Source: a virus (lineage: Duplodnaviria; Caudoviricetes). From it: a stretch of 64,000 nucleotides of DNA. The stretch is from IMG/VR virus record IMGVR_UViG_3300025605_000004, positions 1-64,000 of that record. One strand, written 5' to 3'. Position 1 is the stretch's first letter, and each line of letters begins with the position of its first letter. Under the pieces are notes generated by a model. The model saw nothing but the letters and a program-made list of their open reading frames with translations. It searched no databases and had not been told where the DNA came from. Shown here one piece after another: positions 8,557 through 20,947 of this stretch. The position numbers and the translations under genes are program-made.

Positions 8557-11313
8557 ATGAGAAATCCTACTTGTGCCCTGTGTACATTCGGGGCGAACAA
8601 CATAAGAGTGCCAAAGAACCCGTGTCTGATGCCAGCGGTGGAGGACATCAAGCCTTTGCCAGTTGCAATCATAGCCGAACAGCCCTATCAGCAGGACGAT
8701 ATTTATGGGCAGATATTTGTTTCTAAACAACTGGCAGAGATTCGGAAGTTCTTCAAAGACAAAGGCATACAGGCTTACTGCACCTATGCCTTGAAATGCC
8801 CACGCCCACATAAGGACATCAAGCCGAATGAGAAGGCCATCAAGGTCTGTGCTCATGGCATTAACCTTGAAACCAAGAAACAGGAACGCACAGGTTATCT
8901 TCAGGCAGAGCTTGCCTTGGTGAAGCCAAAGCATATCATCACTCTCGGGGCTAATGCCTTTTACGGTGCTACAGGCCAGAAGCAGGGCAGTGTTCGACCG
9001 AACGGAGGGAGATACCTCGATGAGAAGACAGGCGTTTACCTGTATCCCACGATTCACCCGCTTCAGGCATCATATAGTATCCAGGCTAAAGAGACTCTGT
9101 GGGCTGACCTTCGCCGTTTTGCAGACTGGATTCAGTGTGGTTATGAGGAATCGGTGGAGTTCAATCCACCTGTCTACGTGGCAGATACGCTCAAATCCCT
9201 ACGTGCTCTACAGAAACGAATTAGGGCTGCTGGAGGACTGGTGGCCGTTGATACGGAGACTCAGGGCCTTAATCCTTACGTTTACGGCAAGCACGTCAGG
9301 TCGATTCAGTTCTGTTGGGATGAGGACTTCGGCGGCGTGTTCGTGCCTCTCAAACTTGAGGAAGACTGCTACTACACGGATAAGAGCAACCGTGCAAGCT
9401 TCTGGACTGATGAGCCTCTTTCAGAGGCAGTAGAGATTATCAGGGAGATTCTGTGGGAGTCTCGCTGTATCTGGCATAATGGCAAGTTCGACCGGTTATG
9501 GCTCTATATGTGGGGCCTTCGGGAGTTCGGTGAGCCTATCCCGGCACCGAACATCTATATGGATACCCTCCACGTAGCGCACAACTTGGATGAGAACCGG
9601 GTGCTCAAACTTAAACAGTTAATCACTTCCGAGTTGGGTTACCCGACTTACGACATTCCTGACAAGCTGACAAAGAACCTTGATGTTCTGATTCCATACG
9701 CTGTAAAGGATACCGTCTGTGACCTTCTCCTTGCGAAGAAGTATGCAGGCATCCTGGAAACTGACAAATACCGAGACACCAGACGGCTCTATGCCTGGCT
9801 TCTCCGGCCAGTGGACAAGCTGTTCACGAAGATGGAACTCCGAGGCTGGCCCGTCGATAAGGATACGGTTCTGGAAGTCAGGAAGCTTGTCACAAAAGAG
9901 TTCGTTAAGACCGACCGCAAGCTTCACGAGCTATTGCTGGAGAAAGGCATAGTCCTCGGTTTCAAGAAGGGCATAGTCACGAAGGTTATCCGGGGCAGGG
10001 AAGTTCAGCGGGAGGACAATGTACCTGTAGACCAGGATGATATTCGTTACCTTCAGAAGCACGGACTCGATGCTTGCAAGGAACTGGGCATTACTCTGGA
10101 CAGCCGGACATTCGCTTCACCTCAGAAGCTTGCCACATTGCTGTTCAAGACGTTGGGTTACCAGCCATCCAGCGATAAAAGCGTTGCTTACACCGAGTCC
10201 GGTGGGCTGGCAACCAGCGAGGACGCCTTGGTGCATCTCAAGGGTGACCCCTTCATTGACACTTTGTTCGAGTGGAGGGGTCACGCCAAGGCTCGCTCAA
10301 CCTATGTTGAACCGATGCTCGAAGCTGCCGAGACCCGAGGCAGGCTGACTACCAGCTACAAGATTCACGGCACGGCAACCGGCAGGACAGCATCGGGCAA
10401 GGAGAACGAGAAGAAGACCTCCGGCAAAGAACGGGGCGGTATGAACCTCCAGAACCTTCCATACGATACGTATGGGCCGAATAAGCTGTCCGTTCGACAC
10501 TGCATCAAGGCTAGGCCGGGCTGGAAGATAGTGGAGGCCGACTTCAGCCAGATTGAGCTTCGTGTCGCTGGAATGCTCTCCCAAGACCCGTTGTTCCTGA
10601 AGGCTTACAAAGAAGACAAGGACATTCACGCTATCCGTGCTATGAGGGTTGCCGGTTATACACCGGAAACCTGGGCCGAGCTTTCCAAGGAGAAGCAGAA
10701 GGAACTCAGGCAGAAAGCAAAAGCGGTCAACTTCGGGTTCCTCTACGGGATGTCTGCTCGAACGTTCAAGAAGTATGCTCTTACCAACTACGGTGTGGTC
10801 TTCACGATGGATGAGTGTAACAAGATTCGTGAGCAGTTCTTCAAAGACCATACCGGACTTGAAAGGTGGTATGCCCGACAGGAACGGGAAGCCCTGCGTA
10901 AGGGTTACGTTGAGAACCTGACCGGCAGACGGCGACACCTCCCGGACATCAAGTTCGAGAATGCCACTTCCAAGGAGCAGAAGGCCAAGTATCGGGCTGC
11001 CGTCCGAATGGCAATCAACACGCCGGTTCAGAGCTTCGCTTCCGACCTGAAGCTTATGTCCCTGCTGGCTGTGGACAAGGCGATAGACGAAGAATACGCC
11101 TACCTATTTGGCGAGGTTCACGATTCTATCTTGCTCGAAGTCCGGGATGACATGCTGGATGAGGTTATTGAGAAGGTGCTTAACATCATGTCTCATCCTC
11201 CGCTTCTGGACAAGTTCGGAATTGAGATGACCATTCCTATCAAGGCTGAGGTCAAGGTCGGCCAGAGCCTCGGTGAGGCCAAAGAGTATACACCGATGAG
11301 GAAGGCTGCCTGA
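8557..11313 (+). CDS. polA: Family A DNA polymerase with N-terminal family-4 UDG-like domain and 3'-5' exonuclease
   Basis: CxxC...AEQP...KC.RP...ITLG...IHP UDG-like domain; DTET ExoI, HNGKFD ExoII; ADFSQIELR motif A, KAKAVNFGFLYG motif B, VHDS motif C. Confidence 0.95.
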   Translation: MRNPTCALCTFGANNIRVPKNPCLMPAVEDIKPLPVAIIAEQPYQQDDIYGQIFVSKQLAEIRKFFKDKGIQAYCTYALKCPRPHKDIKPNEKAIKVCAHGINLETKKQERTGYLQAELALVKPKHIITLGANAFYGATGQKQGSVRPNGGRYLDEKTGVYLYPTIHPLQASYSIQAKETLWADLRRFADWIQCGYEESVEFNPPVYVADTLKSLRALQKRIRAAGGLVAVDTETQGLNPYVYGKHVRSIQFCWDEDFGGVFVPLKLEEDCYYTDKSNRASFWTDEPLSEAVEIIREILWESRCIWHNGKFDRLWLYMWGLREFGEPIPAPNIYMDTLHVAHNLDENRVLKLKQLITSELGYPTYDIPDKLTKNLDVLIPYAVKDTVCDLLLAKKYAGILETDKYRDTRRLYAWLLRPVDKLFTKMELRGWPVDKDTVLEVRKLVTKEFVKTDRKLHELLLEKGIVLGFKKGIVTKVIRGREVQREDNVPVDQDDIRYLQKHGLDACKELGITLDSRTFASPQKLATLLFKTLGYQPSSDKSVAYTESGGLATSEDALVHLKGDPFIDTLFEWRGHAKARSTYVEPMLEAAETRGRLTTSYKIHGTATGRTASGKENEKKTSGKERGGMNLQNLPYDTYGPNKLSVRHCIKARPGWKIVEADFSQIELRVAGMLSQDPLFLKAYKEDKDIHAIRAMRVAGYTPETWAELSKEKQKELRQKAKAVNFGFLYGMSARTFKKYALTNYGVVFTMDECNKIREQFFKDHTGLERWYARQEREALRKGYVENLTGRRRHLPDIKFENATSKEQKAKYRAAVRMAINTPVQSFASDLKLMSLLAVDKAIDEEYAYLFGEVHDSILLEVRDDMLDEVIEKVLNIMSHPPLLDKFGIEMTIPIKAEVKVGQSLGEAKEYTPMRKAA

Positions 11314-12464: not shown

Positions 12465-15392
12465 GTGAAGATGGAACGCTTTCGTCTGACAGATGACTTC
12501 CTAGCCAAGTATAAGGAAGTCAAACCCCCATTTGGTTTCAACGGCCTTGGGGAACTCGCATATTTACGCACTTATTCAAGAATCAAGGAAGATGGCTCAA
12601 ACGAGGTCTGGTGGGAGACTTGCAGGCGTGTTGTAGAGGGAACCTACAACATGCAGAAAGCCTGGATTGAAATGAACGGCCTCGGCTGGAACCCGCAAAA
12701 GGCTCAGTTCTCCGCTCAAGAGATGTACGACAGAATGTTCCACATGAAATGGCTGCCACCCGGTAGGGGTCTCTGGGCGATGGGAAGCCCAATAACCGAG
12801 GAACGTGGTTGCTATGCTGCCTTGAATAATTGTTTTGCTCACGAAACAGAAATAATCACTCGGGAAGGGATTAAGCGAATCGGTGATTGCGTGGGTACTA
12901 TTCAAACCCTACTGTCTCGAAATGGGAAATGGATAAAATCACCTATCCAAATTTTTGGTATTCGCCCATTACGAAAAATAACATTCCGGCGTCAAGGTAG
13001 GGATATGATTGTATATGCAACTCCCGACCATCGCTGGTTCGCTAAATCACCGTCGGATGTTAGCCACAATAAGGGTTTTAAGGAATATGTAACAGATGAA
13101 CTGAAGCCCGGCTATAGAATGCAGTATATGTTCGGCCAGGGCATTAAAGACTTGGAACCTAATCCATTCGGCATTGCTCACGGCATAGCTTTTGGCGATG
13201 GTACAAAGTCAAGCAATGCTCACCTTTATCTGTGCGGGGAAAAGGCTGATTTAGCAAAATGGTTCCCACTGAATCACGCAACCCCAGCACTGGACAAAAA
13301 TGCAACACGGATTAGTAATATTCCGCTTGGTTTTAAGAGATTACCCGACTTGAGCGAGCATAGAACCTATCTTCTGGGTTGGTTGATGGGTTACTTTGCT
13401 GCTGATGGTTGTTTGACCGAGGCGGGACAGGCAATTATTTGCAGTTACACGAGAGAAAATCTTGAGTTTGTAAGGTCTGTGTGCGCTATTCTCGGCATTG
13501 GCACTTTTGATATACGTGAGGAGAGAGTCACCAGCAACCTTGATGGTGAGGACTACATCTCTTACAAGATTCAGCTTATGTTGCAATTCCTGACTGAAGA
13601 CTTTTTCCTGCTTTCCAAACACAAAGAACGGTTTAAGCAGCTAGAAGTAGAAAGTCGTCATTTCTGCAACTGGAATGTAGTATCTGTTGAGGAAACGGAT
13701 AGAGTTGAGGAAGTTTTCTGTGCCACAGTCCCCGATGAAGGCGCATTTACTTTGGCAGGAAATATCCTAACAGGTAATTGCGGTTTTGTATCGACTAAGG
13801 ACATAGCCACAACGGGCAGTGACCCGTTCTGCTTCCTGATGGATGCCAGTATGCTCGGGGTCGGCGTAGGATTCGACACCAGGGGAGCCGGAACCATCAC
13901 CATCCGTAAACCCAGACCGGTTGTCGAGACCATGGTCATCCCTGACAGCCGGGAGGGATGGGTAGAGTCAGTTAGGCGTCTGCTCGACTCCTATTTCAAG
14001 GGCGGCCCTACTATGGAGTTCGACTACTCCGAAATACGTCCTGCCGGGGTGCCCATTAAAGGGTTCGGCGGCGTTGCCTCTGGGCCGGAACCTCTGAAGC
14101 GGTTACACGAAGACCTCCGCAAGATTCTCGATGCCCACGATTGCAAGGAAATCAGCAAGAGACTCATCGTGGACATTATGAACCTCATCGGCAAATGTGT
14201 TGTCGCAGGTAACGTGAGGCGCACGGCTGAGATAGCCATAGACTTCGATTGGGATGATATGGACTATTTGACACTCAAGCATTATGAGACCAACCCCGAC
14301 CGGGCCGAATATGGTTGGGCATCCAACAACTCCGTAGCAGCCCCGCTTGGTGCTGATTATTCCCAGTCTGCTAAGTTCGTCCGGTACAACGGTGAGCCGG
14401 GTTATGTCTGGCTCGATAACATCCGAGGTTATTCTAGGATGAACAATGGCCCGGACTTCAAGGACAAGAGGGCCGATGGATGTAACCCCTGTGTGGAGCA
14501 GAGCCTTGAGTCTCATGAGCTTTGCTGCCTCGTAGAGACGTTCCCCAACAAGCATAAGGACTTGGCCGACTACAAGAGAACGCTCAAGTTCGCCTATATG
14601 TATGCCAAAACTGTCACCCTTGGCAAGACTCACTGGCCCGAGACCAACAGGATTCTCCTTCGCAACAGGCGTATCGGGTGCTCAATGAGCGGTATTGTGC
14701 AGTTTATCGCTTCCAGGGGCCTGCATACCTTGAAGGAATGGGCAACTGCGGGCTATGCGACCCTTGAATACTACGATGAAGTCTACTCGGACTGGCTCTG
14801 TGTGCCTCGGTCTATCAAGATGACATCCGTCAAACCTTCTGGCACTGTGAGCCTCCTAGCCGGAGCTACACCCGGTATGCACTTCCCTGAGAGTCGTTAC
14901 TACATCAGGCGGATGAGGATAGACAATAAGTCCGAGCTTATCCCGGCCCTGGTCGAAGCTGGCTACAAGGTTGAGCCTTGCATCGGACAAGAGGACAGCA
15001 CGGTTGTTGTCGAGATTCCCGTTAAAATCGAGGAGAACGTGAGAACTGTCTCTGAGGTTTCAATGTGGGAGCAGTTGGCTCTCGCTGCTTTCCTCCAGAG
15101 GTATTGGGCAGACAACCAAGTGTCCTGCACTGTGACCTTTGACCCTGAGACCGAGGGAGCACAGATAGTCAATGCCCTCAACTTCTATCAGTATCAGTTA
15201 AAGGGTGTCAGCTTCCTCCCAAGGTCGGAACGAGGTGCATTCCCTCAGATGCCTTACGAGGAAATCTCTGAGGAACAGTATGAGACCCTGGCTGCCAACT
15301 TGAAGCCATTGGACTTCTCCAAGGTGAGAGGTGAAAGGGCAGACGTTGAGCGGTTTTGTGATGGCGATAAATGCACGATAGGAGCACACTAA
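12465..15392 (+). CDS. nrdJ: Class II (AdoCbl-dependent) ribonucleoside-triphosphate reductase with intein
   Basis: PPGRGLW, ALNN|C, VAGNVRRTAE, NPCVEQ, VKPSGTVS, C-terminal CDGDKC. Confidence 0.93.
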   Translation: MKMERFRLTDDFLAKYKEVKPPFGFNGLGELAYLRTYSRIKEDGSNEVWWETCRRVVEGTYNMQKAWIEMNGLGWNPQKAQFSAQEMYDRMFHMKWLPPGRGLWAMGSPITEERGCYAALNNCFAHETEIITREGIKRIGDCVGTIQTLLSRNGKWIKSPIQIFGIRPLRKITFRRQGRDMIVYATPDHRWFAKSPSDVSHNKGFKEYVTDELKPGYRMQYMFGQGIKDLEPNPFGIAHGIAFGDGTKSSNAHLYLCGEKADLAKWFPLNHATPALDKNATRISNIPLGFKRLPDLSEHRTYLLGWLMGYFAADGCLTEAGQAIICSYTRENLEFVRSVCAILGIGTFDIREERVTSNLDGEDYISYKIQLMLQFLTEDFFLLSKHKERFKQLEVESRHFCNWNVVSVEETDRVEEVFCATVPDEGAFTLAGNILTGNCGFVSTKDIATTGSDPFCFLMDASMLGVGVGFDTRGAGTITIRKPRPVVETMVIPDSREGWVESVRRLLDSYFKGGPTMEFDYSEIRPAGVPIKGFGGVASGPEPLKRLHEDLRKILDAHDCKEISKRLIVDIMNLIGKCVVAGNVRRTAEIAIDFDWDDMDYLTLKHYETNPDRAEYGWASNNSVAAPLGADYSQSAKFVRYNGEPGYVWLDNIRGYSRMNNGPDFKDKRADGCNPCVEQSLESHELCCLVETFPNKHKDLADYKRTLKFAYMYAKTVTLGKTHWPETNRILLRNRRIGCSMSGIVQFIASRGLHTLKEWATAGYATLEYYDEVYSDWLCVPRSIKMTSVKPSGTVSLLAGATPGMHFPESRYYIRRMRIDNKSELIPALVEAGYKVEPCIGQEDSTVVVEIPVKIEENVRTVSEVSMWEQLALAAFLQRYWADNQVSCTVTFDPETEGAQIVNALNFYQYQLKGVSFLPRSERGAFPQMPYEEISEEQYETLAANLKPLDFSKVRGERADVERFCDGDKCTIGAH
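12831..13778 (+). mobile_element. Intein with LAGLIDADG homing endonuclease in NrdJ (316 aa)
   Basis: Starts CFAHETEI; block B ATPDHRW; GIAFGDG and GYFAADG; ends ILTGN|C; visibly lower GC than the flanks. Confidence 0.93.
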
Positions 15393-16018
15393 TGCCAATA
15401 GTCATAGGACTCGGATACCAGAAGCGAAGCGGTAAGGACACTTGTGCTCAAATGATACTTGAACTGGCAAAGCAGGCTGGAATCCCGGCTTCTCGTCGGG
15501 CATTGGCAGATGCGCTCAAGGAGGAGTGTGCTGCCTATTTGTCTCCCATCATGGGCATTCCGTATGAGGAAATCCTCCGGCAGATGCACGGCACGACTGA
15601 GGAGAAAGCTCGCTGGCGGCTCATCCTCCAATGGTGGGGAACAGAGTTCAGGCGAGAACAAGACCCGGACTACTGGATTAAGCTTCTTCGGAATTGGATT
15701 GAAACGAATTGCAAAGACCTGAACCACATAGTTGTCATACCCGATGTGAGGTTTATCAACGAAGTGGATATGTGCAAATCGTACCCTGTTGGATTTGCGA
15801 TAAACGTCATACGCCCCGGTCTTGAAAGTTTCGATACTCACGAATCGGAGACTGAGCTTGCAGACTACCAAGGCTGGAGTGGTATAATAGTGAATGACGG
15901 TGACCTCACTGACCTAGAAGCCAAAGTGAAAGAGGCGTTCATCTATATGATGACGTTTTCCATGACCCATGAGGAATGTAATACTACCAGTCACAGCAGG
16001 TGTGCTGTGCCACAATAA
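15392..16018 (+). CDS. Deoxynucleoside monophosphate kinase
   Basis: GLGYQKRSGKDT, ADALK, LQWWGTE, IPDVRF.NE, HESE, NDG. Confidence 0.9.
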   Translation: MPIVIGLGYQKRSGKDTCAQMILELAKQAGIPASRRALADALKEECAAYLSPIMGIPYEEILRQMHGTTEEKARWRLILQWWGTEFRREQDPDYWIKLLRNWIETNCKDLNHIVVIPDVRFINEVDMCKSYPVGFAINVIRPGLESFDTHESETELADYQGWSGIIVNDGDLTDLEAKVKEAFIYMMTFSMTHEECNTTSHSRCAVPQ

Positions 16019-16397
16019 GCTAAGTGTCCAAGACCTGGTACCCGGTGATTGTGTAAGTGGCTATGATACCTACAATCGCCGGGTAACCATGGCCCGGATT
16101 GTATCTATCGAGCCACTGCCTCCTGTCCCCAAGATACGGGTTCCTCTTACTCGCCTTATGACGGTCACTCTGACAGCTAAGACGGTCATTCTGACCCCGA
16201 ATGGTGAGAGGACGCTGGCACAGAATGTCAACCGGATAACCGGCTACTGCTATAAGAACCCCAAGAACCTCCTCGTCAGAGAAGTGGACGCCATTATGGA
16301 GTGCAAAGAGACCGTCGAGGTCGTGAGGCTTACCTGGGATGAACCGGACTACATCTGGACTGACGGAATCCTGGTGGGAGCCAAATGGACATCGTAG
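15969..16397 (+). CDS. Stand-alone Hint (intein-fold) protein lacking all catalytic residues
   Basis: Aligns by eye to intein blocks: SVQDLVPGDCVSGYD (block A/N2), TLTAKTVILTPNG (block B), VEVVRLTW...IWTDGILVGA (blocks F/G). Confidence 0.65.
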   Translation: MRNVILPVTAGVLCHNKLSVQDLVPGDCVSGYDTYNRRVTMARIVSIEPLPPVPKIRVPLTRLMTVTLTAKTVILTPNGERTLAQNVNRITGYCYKNPKNLLVREVDAIMECKETVEVVRLTWDEPDYIWTDGILVGAKWTS

Positions 16398-19075
16398 ACA
16401 GACTAACTGAAATCTATATCAACAACCCTGATGAGGGAGAAGCTATAGCCAGAGAGTTTGGCTTGTGGGATAGCATCAAGGACAGACTATTCAAGGCTCT
16501 GAATGTCTACGTCTGCCAGAACGATGTAAACAGGTTCATCGAATATGTCTTCATTGACCCTGAAACCGGCGACTACCTCGAACAGCAGGACTTCCACGAG
16601 GAGTGGCAGCATCTCGTATCTAACCACGACAGGGTGCTTATTGCGGCCCCGAGAGGTCACGGTAAATGCTTGGCCGGGGATACAAAGATTACCCTAGCTG
16701 ATGGTAGCCGTAAAATAGCCTCAGATATTCCTCTTAACACACCGTTCGAGATTTTGTCTTGGGACGAAAATGAAGGTTACAGCATACGCACCGCTCGTAT
16801 ATGGCGCAACATCGTACAACCGATAGTTCATATTAAAACTGCTTTCGGAAGAAGCCTTCGTGTTTCTCCTGAACACCCGTGTTGGAGTGCTACAGGATGG
16901 AAAACAGCAAAAGATATTCAAGTAGGTGACCGGTTAGGTGTAGCTCTCGGTAGTCCTTTTGGTTCCAAGAGCGTAGACTTGGATAAAGCCTGGCTTCTTG
17001 GATTCCTTATCGGTGACGGCACTTTATCTAGGTTAAAGGCCAAGTACATCAAAGGCAGCGTTCAATTTACGTGTGCAGAAAGCGAGATAATTGACCGTGT
17101 AACTGCTATATGTAATCGTCAAGGCTGGAAACTTGAACCGCTGAAATATAACAAGTATGGCTGGGAAATCCGAAAATGTCGTGACTTGGTTGCCTGGCTA
17201 AAAAGACTTGGAATTGCAGGTACGAACTCTCACGATAAGTTTGTTCCAGAAGACATATTTACATGGAATCAAGAATCTGCGGCAGCCTTTATTGAAGGGT
17301 ATTTTGATTCTGATGGGACAGCGTGTTACCCAGGGGGCCGTTATCGACACGTAGCATTTAACAGTGTTTCCCGAGAGCTTTTGGAAGGTATTCAAACTCT
17401 ACTCCTTAGATTTGGTGTTAGCTCTCAGCTAACACCTAAAGACGTAGTGCCTTCCTGGGTTTTGGTTATTCACGGTAGTAGTATAAATCAGTTTTCCTCA
17501 ATTCTATCTCCTTGCTCTAGGAAGAATCAGAATATTCGGCAGATGAGCGAGGGCATAGTAACCAATGATAACGTTGACCTTTTTGGGCATCATAGGTCTC
17601 GAATGCTTGCGTATGCTGCATATGCGGGCAACGAGGTCTTTGCCAATAACGCACGGCTTCAATGGGACTACGTAACTGAGGTCATCTTTGAAGAACCTGA
17701 GATGACTTATTCAGTGGAGGTAGAGGGAACACACGTCCACATTACAAATGATTTTGTGACACACAATACTGTCCAAACCATCGGTAGGATAGTCTGGGAG
17801 CTTGGGCGCAACCCGGAAATCAGGGTCAAAATCATCGGTTCCTCCGACGACAAGGCCAAAGAAATCCTGGGCCTTGTGAAGGAAGTCATCGCCACATCTG
17901 AGCGAGTCCACGAGATATTCCCGAACCTGGAGATAGATGCCACTCGTGGAGACACCAAAACGGCATTCTTCGTCAAGAGACGCATTCCTCAGAGAGACCC
18001 TTCTGTGGAAGCATCGGGTGTTCTCTCGACTGGTGCTGGAGGTCGTGCTGACCTCCTGGTGTGCGACGATGTTGTTGACCTCAAAAACGCAGTCATCAAC
18101 CCTGCCCAACGTGAGCAGGTTATCAAGGCTATCGAGGAAACGTGGTTTTCCCTGGTTGCCTCTAAGGGTCGAATCATTTGGATATGCACCCCTTACCACG
18201 TTGCTGACGCCACACACGTCCTGAAGGCCAGAGGCACATTCACCGTCTGGTGGACTCCGGCCATCGAATACAAGATGCACTTCGAGGACGACGGTACTCC
18301 GATTGTTGACCCTGAAACCGGGCAGCAGAAGGTAACGAAGAAAATCCTGTGGCCGAGCAAGTGGTCTGAGGAGAAGCTGAAAGAGAGGGAGGCCGAGGTC
18401 GGCACCCGAGCATTCGCAAGGCAGTATCTCCTCAATGCTATGTCCGACGAAGAAAGGACGTTCCCCGAGAAGTCCCTGGAGAAAAGCTTTGACAAGACCA
18501 TTGCTGACATCGGTGAGGACATCGAGGATACTTGGGCAACTTATGGCGGCGTAGACCTCGCAACGGCCCTTGGTAAGAAGAATGCTTGGACAGTCATCAC
18601 AACTTTGGCGAAGTCGCCGTATGACTCCAGGCTCTACTTCAAGGAGATATATCGCCGGAGGATGCCGTTCTCTACGACCATCAAGTGCATCCTGGAGCAG
18701 TATCGAAAGCACAACTGGAGAATGGTCTACGTCGAGAACAACCAGTATCAGCAGGCAGTCATTGACGCACTTGAGGAGATAGATAAGTCCTTGCCGGTCT
18801 ACTCGTTTACAACGGGCACCAACAAGGCCGATGAGAAGGTCGGGTTGCCCGGCCTCAACGTTGCCTTTGAAAAGGGCCATTTCGCCATACCTGCGGCCAA
18901 GTTCCCTCTGGCCGGTGACGAAGTATCACCTTTGGCAATCCTGATGAACGAGCTTAGAACACACCCCGGAGGGGAGTTCTCCGATACTGTGATGTCACTA
19001 TGGTTTGCATGGTCGGCAGCAGTGAAAGGTTCCGGCGACTTTGAAGATGCATATATCGAAGCAGTAGCCTCATAA
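16385..19075 (+). CDS. terL: Terminase large subunit with intein
   Basis: Walker A APRGHGK|T split by the intein; GGRADLLVCDD Walker B; ICTPYH; nuclease GVDLA, VENNQYQ, FSDTVMS. Confidence 0.93.
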   Translation: MDIVDRLTEIYINNPDEGEAIAREFGLWDSIKDRLFKALNVYVCQNDVNRFIEYVFIDPETGDYLEQQDFHEEWQHLVSNHDRVLIAAPRGHGKCLAGDTKITLADGSRKIASDIPLNTPFEILSWDENEGYSIRTARIWRNIVQPIVHIKTAFGRSLRVSPEHPCWSATGWKTAKDIQVGDRLGVALGSPFGSKSVDLDKAWLLGFLIGDGTLSRLKAKYIKGSVQFTCAESEIIDRVTAICNRQGWKLEPLKYNKYGWEIRKCRDLVAWLKRLGIAGTNSHDKFVPEDIFTWNQESAAAFIEGYFDSDGTACYPGGRYRHVAFNSVSRELLEGIQTLLLRFGVSSQLTPKDVVPSWVLVIHGSSINQFSSILSPCSRKNQNIRQMSEGIVTNDNVDLFGHHRSRMLAYAAYAGNEVFANNARLQWDYVTEVIFEEPEMTYSVEVEGTHVHITNDFVTHNTVQTIGRIVWELGRNPEIRVKIIGSSDDKAKEILGLVKEVIATSERVHEIFPNLEIDATRGDTKTAFFVKRRIPQRDPSVEASGVLSTGAGGRADLLVCDDVVDLKNAVINPAQREQVIKAIEETWFSLVASKGRIIWICTPYHVADATHVLKARGTFTVWWTPAIEYKMHFEDDGTPIVDPETGQQKVTKKILWPSKWSEEKLKEREAEVGTRAFARQYLLNAMSDEERTFPEKSLEKSFDKTIADIGEDIEDTWATYGGVDLATALGKKNAWTVITTLAKSPYDSRLYFKEIYRRRMPFSTTIKCILEQYRKHNWRMVYVENNQYQQAVIDALEEIDKSLPVYSFTTGTNKADEKVGLPGLNVAFEKGHFAIPAAKFPLAGDEVSPLAILMNELRTHPGGEFSDTVMSLWFAWSAAVKGSGDFEDAYIEAVAS
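16667..17767 (+). mobile_element. Intein with LAGLIDADG homing endonuclease in the TerL P-loop (367 aa)
   Basis: CLAGDTKI...VSPEHP...LLGFLIGDG...FIEGYFDSDG...VTHN|T. Confidence 0.95.
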
Positions 19076-19162
19076 AGACGCCATCAATCGGCACTACTAT
19101 GTTATGATATAAGCAGTCTGTTGCAAACGCCTTACTTCCATGCTATAATGAGGATAGTTGCC

Positions 19163-20947
19163 ATGAACTCACCTTTTGATATACAAAAGCCGAAGCGACA
19201 ACCGGTTACATACTGGGCTAAGAAGATTGGGCGAGCGTTGAATGAGCTATTTGATACTGACTCGTCTAACCCACGACACGCCGTTCCTCGAATCAAGGAT
19301 TCCAACTCTCTAACTGACACGTTCTTTGCTTCGGCTAATCCAGCTTCCATTCCGAACCTGTGGAGAACCCATCAGACTCGGAAGGCTGTCTATCAGGACA
19401 TAGAGCGGATGGACGCCGAGGATGAGACGGTGGCAACGGCCCTCGACATCATAGCTGATTGTTCAGTTTCCTACTCTGAGACTCAGAACATTCCTCAGTT
19501 CAATATAGTGTCCAAGGACGCAAGAGTGCAGAAGATTCTCAGCGACCTTTCCGCACGACTTGACCTTCCGGGCGAAATATGGCAGATTGCCAGAGATGGT
19601 GTGAAGCAGGGCAACGAGTTCAGAGAGGTCATCATCGACCGGCAGGCGATGAAGATTATAGCCCTGAAGCAGACCATCTCGTATCAGATTTACCCGAAGA
19701 CCAATGAGAGGGGCGACAAGCTGCCCGGATGGATAGCTCTCAAGGATGGAGACCTTTATGGCACTGAGGCCGGGAGAGAGCTTGAGGAATGGCAGATAGT
19801 GCCGTTCCAGTTCGGTCACAAACGGGGCTTCCTGACGGTGCCTCCGCTGGCCTCGGCACGACGCAACTGGATTCGGCTTTCAAAGATGGAAGACGGCATG
19901 GCAATCGCAAGATTGACCCGTGCTTACGATAAGTTGGTTCACCGTATTCCGGTCAAGCCCGAGATGAGCCGTGAGGAAGTCATGGCCCGCATTCGGATGT
20001 ATAAGGACAGCATCACTAAAAAACGTATGCTGAACTCTGAGGGTTTGCTGGAGCAGACGGACAGCCCGCTTGACATACAGTCCGACTTTTACCTCCCGGA
20101 TACTGGAGATGGCCGTGGAGGAGTTGAGCAACTATCCAGTAACAATGCACAGCTTGGAAACCTGAACGACATCATCTATCATCGTGAAAAGCTTCTCACC
20201 AGGCTCCAGGTTCCGATTGCTTACTTGCAAATCACTTCGGCACAGAAGACTCACCTGACTGCCGGTAGTAACAAGGGCGATGTTGAGATTCAGTTTGCAA
20301 GAATGCTCAGGAGAGTTCAGCGGATGCTCAAGAAAGGTCTGCGCCGGGTGTGCGACATCGAGCTTATGCTCCATGGCATAGCCCCGAGTGAAGACCTGTA
20401 TGAAATCCAAATGACCCCTATCAACACCAAAGACCTCCGGGAAGACGCCGAAATCGAGCTTACCTACGCTCAAGCGGCTGTGTATTTCCTGGAAGCCTTC
20501 GGTGCTCTGCCGCCTGAGTTTGTCGCTGAGAAGTTTATGCACCTTGATACGGAACAGACCGATGTACTTGAGCAGTTCCTCAAGAAGTATTCTGACCGTA
20601 TCACTGAGGCCCGCGTGAAGGCTATCGAGAATGCGGCCATTCCGAAGTCTGATTTGATTAAGGACAGGCTGCCGGGCGACTCCCAGAAGGGCAGAGGCAG
20701 TGGCAACCAGAACAAAACGCGAGGCAGTAGGACAACCGAGCAAAAGGGCACTGCGGAAGCACAACAGTCTGTGCCAATCGAAACTTTGGTAGACATCATC
20801 TACGAACTTCAGGAGGCAATCTACCAGGACTTCCGTGACCAGGGAATCCACGTTCCCGAGATAGACGAGATTAGTCAGCGGAATGTCATTAGAGCAGGAC
20901 TTGCTCAGGTAGCAAAAACACCGGATGCAGAGCTTATCGTCAACTAA
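19163..20947 (+). CDS. Portal protein, T4 gp20-like
   Basis: ALDIIAD, MEDGMAIARLTRA, DFYLP, LGNLNDIIYHREKLLTRLQVP, FARMLRRVQ; follows TerL; TGCTATAAT at 19141 supports ATG 19163. Confidence 0.85.
   Translation: MNSPFDIQKPKRQPVTYWAKKIGRALNELFDTDSSNPRHAVPRIKDSNSLTDTFFASANPASIPNLWRTHQTRKAVYQDIERMDAEDETVATALDIIADCSVSYSETQNIPQFNIVSKDARVQKILSDLSARLDLPGEIWQIARDGVKQGNEFREVIIDRQAMKIIALKQTISYQIYPKTNERGDKLPGWIALKDGDLYGTEAGRELEEWQIVPFQFGHKRGFLTVPPLASARRNWIRLSKMEDGMAIARLTRAYDKLVHRIPVKPEMSREEVMARIRMYKDSITKKRMLNSEGLLEQTDSPLDIQSDFYLPDTGDGRGGVEQLSSNNAQLGNLNDIIYHREKLLTRLQVPIAYLQITSAQKTHLTAGSNKGDVEIQFARMLRRVQRMLKKGLRRVCDIELMLHGIAPSEDLYEIQMTPINTKDLREDAEIELTYAQAAVYFLEAFGALPPEFVAEKFMHLDTEQTDVLEQFLKKYSDRITEARVKAIENAAIPKSDLIKDRLPGDSQKGRGSGNQNKTRGSRTTEQKGTAEAQQSVPIETLVDIIYELQEAIYQDFRDQGIHVPEIDEISQRNVIRAGLAQVAKTPDAELIVN

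Follow-up and report, generated by a model that had tools for sequence, protein, structure and literature searches.

A stand-alone, apparently splicing-dead Hint-fold gene directly precedes the large terminase gene (terL) in the stretch of DNA analysed here, hereafter the window, which comprises 64,000 nucleotides of a tailed phage (Duplodnaviria; Caudoviricetes; positions 1 to 64,000 of IMG/VR record IMGVR_UViG_3300025605_000004) and is part of a virus record that is complete at 98,174 bp and bears terminal repeats. The gene (15969-16397; this and all other window features named below lie on the + strand) was characterised through an AlphaFold2 model, superposition on inteins and the ratio of nonsynonymous to synonymous substitution rates (dN/dS). 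Its 142-aa open reading frame (ORF) encodes a protein of about 16 kDa, all beta in the model. The gene is genuine, evolves under purifying selection and is a vertically inherited core gene of an uncultured phage clade with genomes of about 100 kb. A preliminary description of the window, made from the letters alone, had suggested domestication because the ORF is intact while its catalytic residues are replaced. Domestication of the Hint fold is now well supported by the intact ORF, the low dN/dS, the occurrence of the family in 31 clusters, the family-wide loss of catalytic residues, and the presence of one copy per complete genome. As to function, the chances stand a little short of even that the product is an exapted Hint-fold protein that partners the large terminase (TerL) in the slot of the small terminase (TerS).

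The assignment to the Hint fold comes from family profiles and structure prediction. The single sequence has no match in Pfam, in PHROGs or, by phmmer, in the PDB, and no single family member reaches threshold against the Pfam Hint models, the best being Hint_2 (E = 0.11). A profile of 25 family members searched against PDB sequences retrieved the Hint domain of Tetrahymena BIL2 (6y75; E = 2.8e-4) in two co-linear stretches, and an AlphaFold2 model built on a 25-member family alignment reached a pLDDT of 96.2 and a pTM of 0.89. Foldseek ranked mini-inteins first among the matches of this model, the top one being the NpuDnaB intein (TM 0.83). In line with this, VIA-align superposed 134 of the 142 residues on that intein (4o1r) with a Z score of 18.0 and a root-mean-square deviation (rmsd) of 1.9 Å. 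Scanning 48,161 PDB representatives without dependence on Foldseek yielded 32 matches at Z >= 5, all of them HINT domains (intein, bacterial intein-like (BIL), Hedgehog and Vint), and the next match stood at Z 3.0; small terminases were absent from the structural matches in this set. The preliminary description had proposed that the whole ORF follows a mini-intein pattern, and the model and the Foldseek search indeed returned a Hint horseshoe from end to end. On this predicted structure, the protein belongs by fold to the HINT superfamily.

Superposition on inteins also locates the equivalents of their catalytic residues. In many structural-alignment rows, model residues 5 to 138 align to intein residues 1 to last, which places I5 (codon 15981-15983) at intein Cys1/Ser1 and G137-A138 (16377-16382) at the penultimate His and terminal Asn, and leaves about four residues on either side of the Hint module, in place of exteins. 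The block B register, taken from the sequence (T-A-K-T-V-I-L-T-P-N-G, following the pattern T-x-x-[H>T]-x-h-L-T-x-x-G), makes T69-A-K-T72 (16173-16184) the equivalent of TxxH and puts T72 at the His, whereas the register of block F, taken from the profile alignment to BIL2, puts R120 (16326-16328) at the Asp of F:4. These replacements hold throughout the family, as judged from 38 non-identical members. Position 5 is I, L, V, R, K, M, Y or T and in no case Cys or Ser (0/38); position 72 is Thr in 35/38 and His in 0/38; position 120 is occupied by E, R, I, Q, V, K, L or M, with Asp in 0/38; position 137 is Gly in all 38; and position 138 is Asn in two. The +1 equivalent, which is Cys, Ser or Thr in inteins, is K139 here and varies across the family. 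By motif register, the Trp-Cys-Thr triplet of class 3 inteins is not present either (B:12 is I74, F:4 is the variable R120, and G:5 is V136), and there is no conserved His, Asp or Asn in the family. With the nucleophiles of positions 1 and +1 gone, along with the block B His, the block F Asp, the penultimate His and the terminal Asn, no known Hint chemistry leaves the protein able to splice or cleave. The preliminary description had listed Cys1 replaced by Ile, TxxH by TAKT, the block F Asp by Arg and the terminal HN by GA, together with an absence of exteins; structural and profile mapping confirms each of these substitutions and extends the losses to the whole family, and the ORF begins four residues before the Hint module and ends four after it.

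The family conserves residues of its own. Cys94 (codon 16248-16250) is present in 38/38 members within the motif G-x-C-x-x-N-P, at a non-canonical intein position that is not in block F and that, by motif register, would flank the loop that holds the endonuclease in mobile inteins. Other family-specific residues are Arg104 (35/38), Trp123 (37/38), Tyr128 (32/38) and Trp130 (32/38), and together with Cys94 these could form a new interaction site. Alternatively, the protein might still be an enzyme that uses non-canonical residues (Cys94, Thr72, Arg104) for cleavage, thioester or transfer reactions whose substrate would be either the protein itself or a partner, for instance TerL. The invariance of Cys94, the presence of Thr72 and Arg104 in 35 of the 38 members each, and the varied active-site combinations known among Hint domains, class 3 inteins and BIL domains being examples (PMC7664689), would agree with such an activity. 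It is nevertheless improbable, given that no His, Asp or Asn is conserved across the members, that Cys94 lies outside F:4, that the class 3 triplet is absent, that the protein has neither exteins nor fused cargo, and that a search of 1.84 billion representatives turned up no fused forms. Because the catalytic equipment for known Hint chemistry is lacking, a binding role is the most economical one.

The exhaustive phmmer search of these 1.84 billion representatives recovered 31 clusters at 50% identity. Nearly all hits are 123-166 aa long and align end to end, and the family proteins measure about 137-145 aa. Three long phmmer hits were considered as fused family members and rejected as spurious, being repeat-rich surface proteins. 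Fusion of the ORF with a neighbour was also rejected, as the search contained no fused proteins, and so was a frameshift fusion with TerL or with the upstream deoxynucleoside monophosphate (dNMP) kinase, the overlap holding no slippery heptamer. Neither Pfam nor PHROGs has a model for the family, and tblastn of two of its members against 50,697 phage records gave no match. The isolates closest to the clade are at most about 31% identical by TerL and about 24% by portal, and no cultured relative was found. Literature searches on stand-alone or inactive phage Hint proteins, or on a link between Hint domains and the small terminase, returned nothing relevant. These outcomes, like the empty Pfam and PHROGs scans, agree with the preliminary description, which knew of no described phage family of this kind.

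Several observations show that this frame is maintained by selection. Pairwise dN/dS ranges from 0.09 to 0.35 for pairs with dS < 1 and is 0.07 between the window and locus L001. Even members only about 25% identical keep the frame at full length. At the N-terminus, the relatives keep the sequence M-R-x-V-I-L-P along with the full-length frame, and substitutions there are synonymous or conservative; toward the C-terminus, the invariant L-V-G codons show synonymous changes. A near-identical phage occurs in contigs of three independent studies (landfill and anaerobic digesters), the sole change in the ORF being L63F. The test that the preliminary description had put forward, conservation and dN/dS across relatives with and without inteins, thus found intact homologs and values well below 1. 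These data bear directly on the idea that the ORF is a decaying mini-intein relic, or an over-called ORF without function. Such an idea could draw on the complete loss of catalytic residues, on the absence of a strong Shine-Dalgarno sequence upstream of the ATG at 15969, and on the disagreement of gene callers over the start. However, a dN/dS well below 1, a frame kept to about 25% identity in 31 clusters, a very confident AlphaFold2 model and the synonymous changes in the invariant L-V-G codons make it barely credible, and purifying selection in effect rules it out.

With regard to the start, public gene calls begin the Hint gene at internal Met codons and thereby yield only 102 or 79 aa. The JGI call of one orthologue (P0002; L001:2100-2408), for instance, starts at an internal Met and gives 102 aa. 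The name attached to it by JGI, 'spore coat polysaccharide biosynthesis protein SpsF', is one for which no support was found.

The gene is tightly tied to terL. Two independent searches gathered the related loci, one starting from the Hint protein and the other from TerL. In every locus with DNA upstream of terL, the Hint gene stands directly before terL, and terL is followed by a T4-type portal gene. The checked relatives include 21 distinct Hint-gene/TerL pairs, across which the pairwise identities of the Hint protein and of the TerL C-extein are correlated with a Pearson r of 0.91 (210 non-independent pairs from the 21 distinct gene pairs). The Hint-like protein evolves faster, being about 40% identical where TerL is 70% identical. 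In agreement with core-gene status, the gene occurs exactly once in each of four complete genomes. In nearly all loci, the Hint stop and the terL start overlap by 1-17 nt, the commonest form being ATGA, and this conserved overlap implies cotranslation. In the window, the terL start (ATG at 16385) lies inside the Hint gene with an overlap of 13 nt. The junction (16376-16397) consists of a candidate terL ribosome-binding sequence, GGGAG (16376-16380), located within the C-terminal L-V-G-A codons of the Hint gene, followed by this ATG and by the Hint stop codon TAG (16395-16397). At its 5' end, the Hint gene begins within the dNMP kinase gene, which it overlaps by 50 nt. Both overlaps had been recorded in the preliminary description and were found as given. 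No promoter or terminator signal above chance was detected between the genes. The Hint gene would then be expressed from the same operon as terL, with the ribosome-binding site and start of terL embedded in its last codons.

The fold of the protein and the location of its gene between two intein-bearing genes could suggest a regulator, decoy or helper in the splicing or homing of the resident inteins. As the preliminary description had noted, NrdJ and TerL both carry full inteins. The NrdJ intein (12831-13778; C123-N438, boundaries from sequence, followed by Cys) ends in Gly-Asn rather than His-Asn and matches LAGLIDADG_3 and Intein_splicing weakly. The TerL intein (16667-17767; C95-N461, boundaries from comparison with the 529-aa L001 TerL) carries a LAGLIDADG endonuclease, is inserted directly after GHGK of the Walker A motif, and gives stronger matches (Intein_splicing, E = 6.4e-10; LAGLIDADG_3, E = 2.2e-16; PF14890 at 16781-17767). 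The distribution of the Hint gene is independent of such elements. The TerL intein is found only in the window's phage, L007 and L022, while at least 17 distinct loci have an intein-less TerL (orthologues of 529-536 aa) beside the Hint gene. Furthermore, two complete relatives, G002 (112 kb) and G003 (114 kb), have no match to Intein_splicing (PF14890), PT-HINT (PF07591) or Hom_end_hint (PF05203), and G003 likewise has none to LAGLIDADG_3 (PF14528); the same intein models do find inteins in G000 and G001. These two relatives, intein-free by the models, still carry the Hint gene. Nor does the Hint protein bear specific similarity to the resident inteins: a hidden Markov model (HMM) of the family matches only the Hint gene in the window's genome, and recent derivation from the resident inteins was rejected on this ground and on an hhalign probability of 0.3 to the TerL intein. 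Finally, the Hint gene co-diverges with TerL, unlike a mobile element. An accessory role for the inteins is therefore very improbable, the occurrence of the gene next to intein-less TerL and in intein-free genomes ruling out a function that depends on them, and the splicing regulator or decoy put forward in the preliminary description is disfavored.

Some further observations concern the inteins themselves. Their content varies between close relatives, as an 880-aa frame of G001 contains an insert resembling an intein (Hom_end_hint plus LAGLIDADG_3; G001:C1:41500-42270) and G002 has only a free-standing 139-aa LAGLIDADG-like ORF (G002:C1:93503-93742). At the site of the TerL intein in the Walker A P-loop (window 16640-16670), the +1 residue is Thr, and Ser occupies this position in intein-less relatives. 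Additionally, near-identical landfill and digester phages differ by in-frame length variants of the TerL intein (17581-17623), one having 90 extra letters between 17581 and 17582 and another lacking 15 letters at 17608.

Among the roles named in the preliminary description, that of a packaging cofactor fits best, and plausibly so, in view of the invariant adjacency and overlap with terL. The Hint protein would act by binding to TerL at a near-stoichiometric ratio during DNA packaging, either as a small-terminase analogue or as a factor that regulates the motor or helps to assemble it. TerL is favored as the partner because it is the only constant functional neighbor, because the overlap is conserved, because no Pfam small terminase is found, and because the nearest outgroup phages have a helical ORF at the same place. 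Specifically, the complete 98,174-bp genome has no match to six Pfam small-terminase families, and a PHROGs scan of ten other ORFs of the window revealed no small terminase. In outgroup phages whose TerL is 26-29% identical, a 168-aa, all-helical ORF whose N-terminus resembles a helix-turn-helix (HTH) overlaps the terL start (L039 2815-3321; L041 2839-3345; unannotated and without Pfam or PHROGs family), and its product is a candidate small terminase. The Hint-family HMM found no Hint-like gene in the outgroup loci, and phmmer found no homologue of the helical protein in the window's genome. The Hint protein may fill a slot that an all-helical, HTH-like protein holds in the nearest outgroup phages. 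A more specific version of this reading, in which a mini-intein was exapted as a non-enzymatic subunit of the packaging machine and displaced an ancestral helical small terminase in the clade, is unlikely.

A number of points weigh against a terminase partner. The model is all beta and includes neither an HTH nor a helical oligomerization region, and the family is near neutral (median isoelectric point 6.1; net charge -1), which is no sign of a DNA-binding protein. Small terminases are easily missed, being very difficult to recognize, and one may be encoded elsewhere in the genome, undetected. The outgroup helical protein is itself only a candidate small terminase, its secondary structure coming from a low-confidence model (pLDDT 54) and its look-alikes in the Atlas, which are HTH families, being leads only. 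Adjacency and overlap show co-expression and not function, and the dNMP kinase is also a near-constant neighbor, leaving room for a link to nucleotide metabolism. Along these lines, the Hint protein could be a binding module unrelated to packaging, such as a partner of the dNMP kinase or a host-takeover factor, with its adjacency to terL reflecting only a conserved order of genes at the border between replication and packaging modules. The dNMP kinase gene is indeed the upstream neighbor in most relatives, often with overlapping or abutting stop and start; the family has none of the features of small terminases; and the tie to TerL is indirect. On the other hand, where the neighborhood varies it is contact with terL that is retained and contact with the dNMP kinase that is lost: L005 has a dGTPase-like gene upstream of the Hint gene in place of the dNMP kinase, and in L022 five small ORFs separate the dNMP kinase gene from the Hint gene. 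As the overlap with the terL start is in addition near universal, a binder with no part in packaging is possible, though doubtful.

Compared with known systems, the protein is closest in structure to class 1 mini-inteins. NpuDnaB, Ssp DnaB, gp41-1 and NrdJ-1 show the same whole-length horseshoe (Z 16-18; rmsd 1.8-2.2 Å) and the same domain boundaries, and their block B, F and G patterns are still recognizable in the Hint ORF. These residual block patterns and intein-like boundaries suggest that the family descends from a class 1 mini-intein and is not an ancestral form. Unlike class 1 mini-inteins, however, the Hint ORF is not inserted in a host protein and lacks the catalytic residues family-wide, and it is inherited vertically with TerL, whereas inteins are scattered sporadically. 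BIL, Hedgehog and Vint domains share the fold as well (Z 15.8 for Tetrahymena BIL2, 15.3 for a Clostridium BIL, 15.2 for Hedgehog and 8.9 for Vint), but they are fused to cargo and retain the Cys1 nucleophile, and the Hint family has neither. The family therefore falls outside the intein, BIL, Hog and Vint families, failing every testable defining feature of each.

The yeast HO endonuclease is a domesticated VMA1-type intein that does not splice and stands alone with a cellular job. It has kept the LAGLIDADG endonuclease and gained a zinc-finger region, and it serves to cleave DNA. In concept, HO may be regarded as the closest precedent for an intein that was domesticated and no longer splices; the phage protein differs from it in consisting of the Hint module alone, to which neither an endonuclease nor any other domain is attached. 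Phage small terminases (T4 gp16, T7 gp18, P22 gp3) are encoded at the same place, immediately before terL and in translational coupling with it, and are of similar size (about 140 aa). In contrast, the Hint protein is all beta, has no HTH or helical oligomerization core, matches no Pfam or PHROGs family and is near neutral, so that its likeness to a small terminase is at most one of position. Lastly, other phages have unnamed stand-alone Hint ORFs that encode single-Hint-domain proteins (128-172 aa in BFVD; 128-182 aa in ESM Atlas clusters). These have no detectable sequence relation to the Hint family (tblastn, 50,697 phage records), and no description of them was found in the literature searched.

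Inteins are usually regarded as selfish passengers, and all solved Hint domains that match the model are autoprocessing elements. A family that is free-standing, splicing-dead and present as a single-copy core gene indicates that the Hint fold can be recruited for a non-catalytic job, and bears on whether and how inteins become domesticated. The origin of the HINT fold is still under debate (PMC7664689), and the existence of Hint proteins that are both free-living and non-catalytic matters to that discussion. The family also touches on the question of what stands in for a small terminase in the many phages for which none can be found. If displacement of a small terminase did take place, the protein would be unprecedented both as a terminase partner with a Hint fold and as a bare Hint module that was domesticated into a core viral gene. 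In any case, the phages of this clade, which come from sludge, digesters and landfills, offer annotators a new family that calls for a name.

The remaining features of the region concern the genes around the Hint gene. The dNMP kinase gene (15371-16018; PF21448, E = 2.4e-16; phrog_139, E = 1e-37) has its last 50 nt in the overlap with the Hint start. Downstream, the intein-bearing large terminase gene (16385-19075; 896 aa; phrog_38, E = 8.5e-63) is followed by the T4-type portal gene (19121-20947), identified by PF07230 on orthologues and by its synteny downstream of terL in all loci. This packaging module (16385-20947) looks chimeric, as TerL is nearest to the terminases of T7-like phages (26-31% identity) and the portal is T4-type, the latter (PF07230) being about 24% identical to those of jumbo and T4-like phages. 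Farther upstream, the DNA polymerase A gene (8557-11313) has an N-terminal uracil-DNA-glycosylase-like domain fused to exonuclease and polymerase domains, a layout taken from the Pfam listing on an identical JGI gene.

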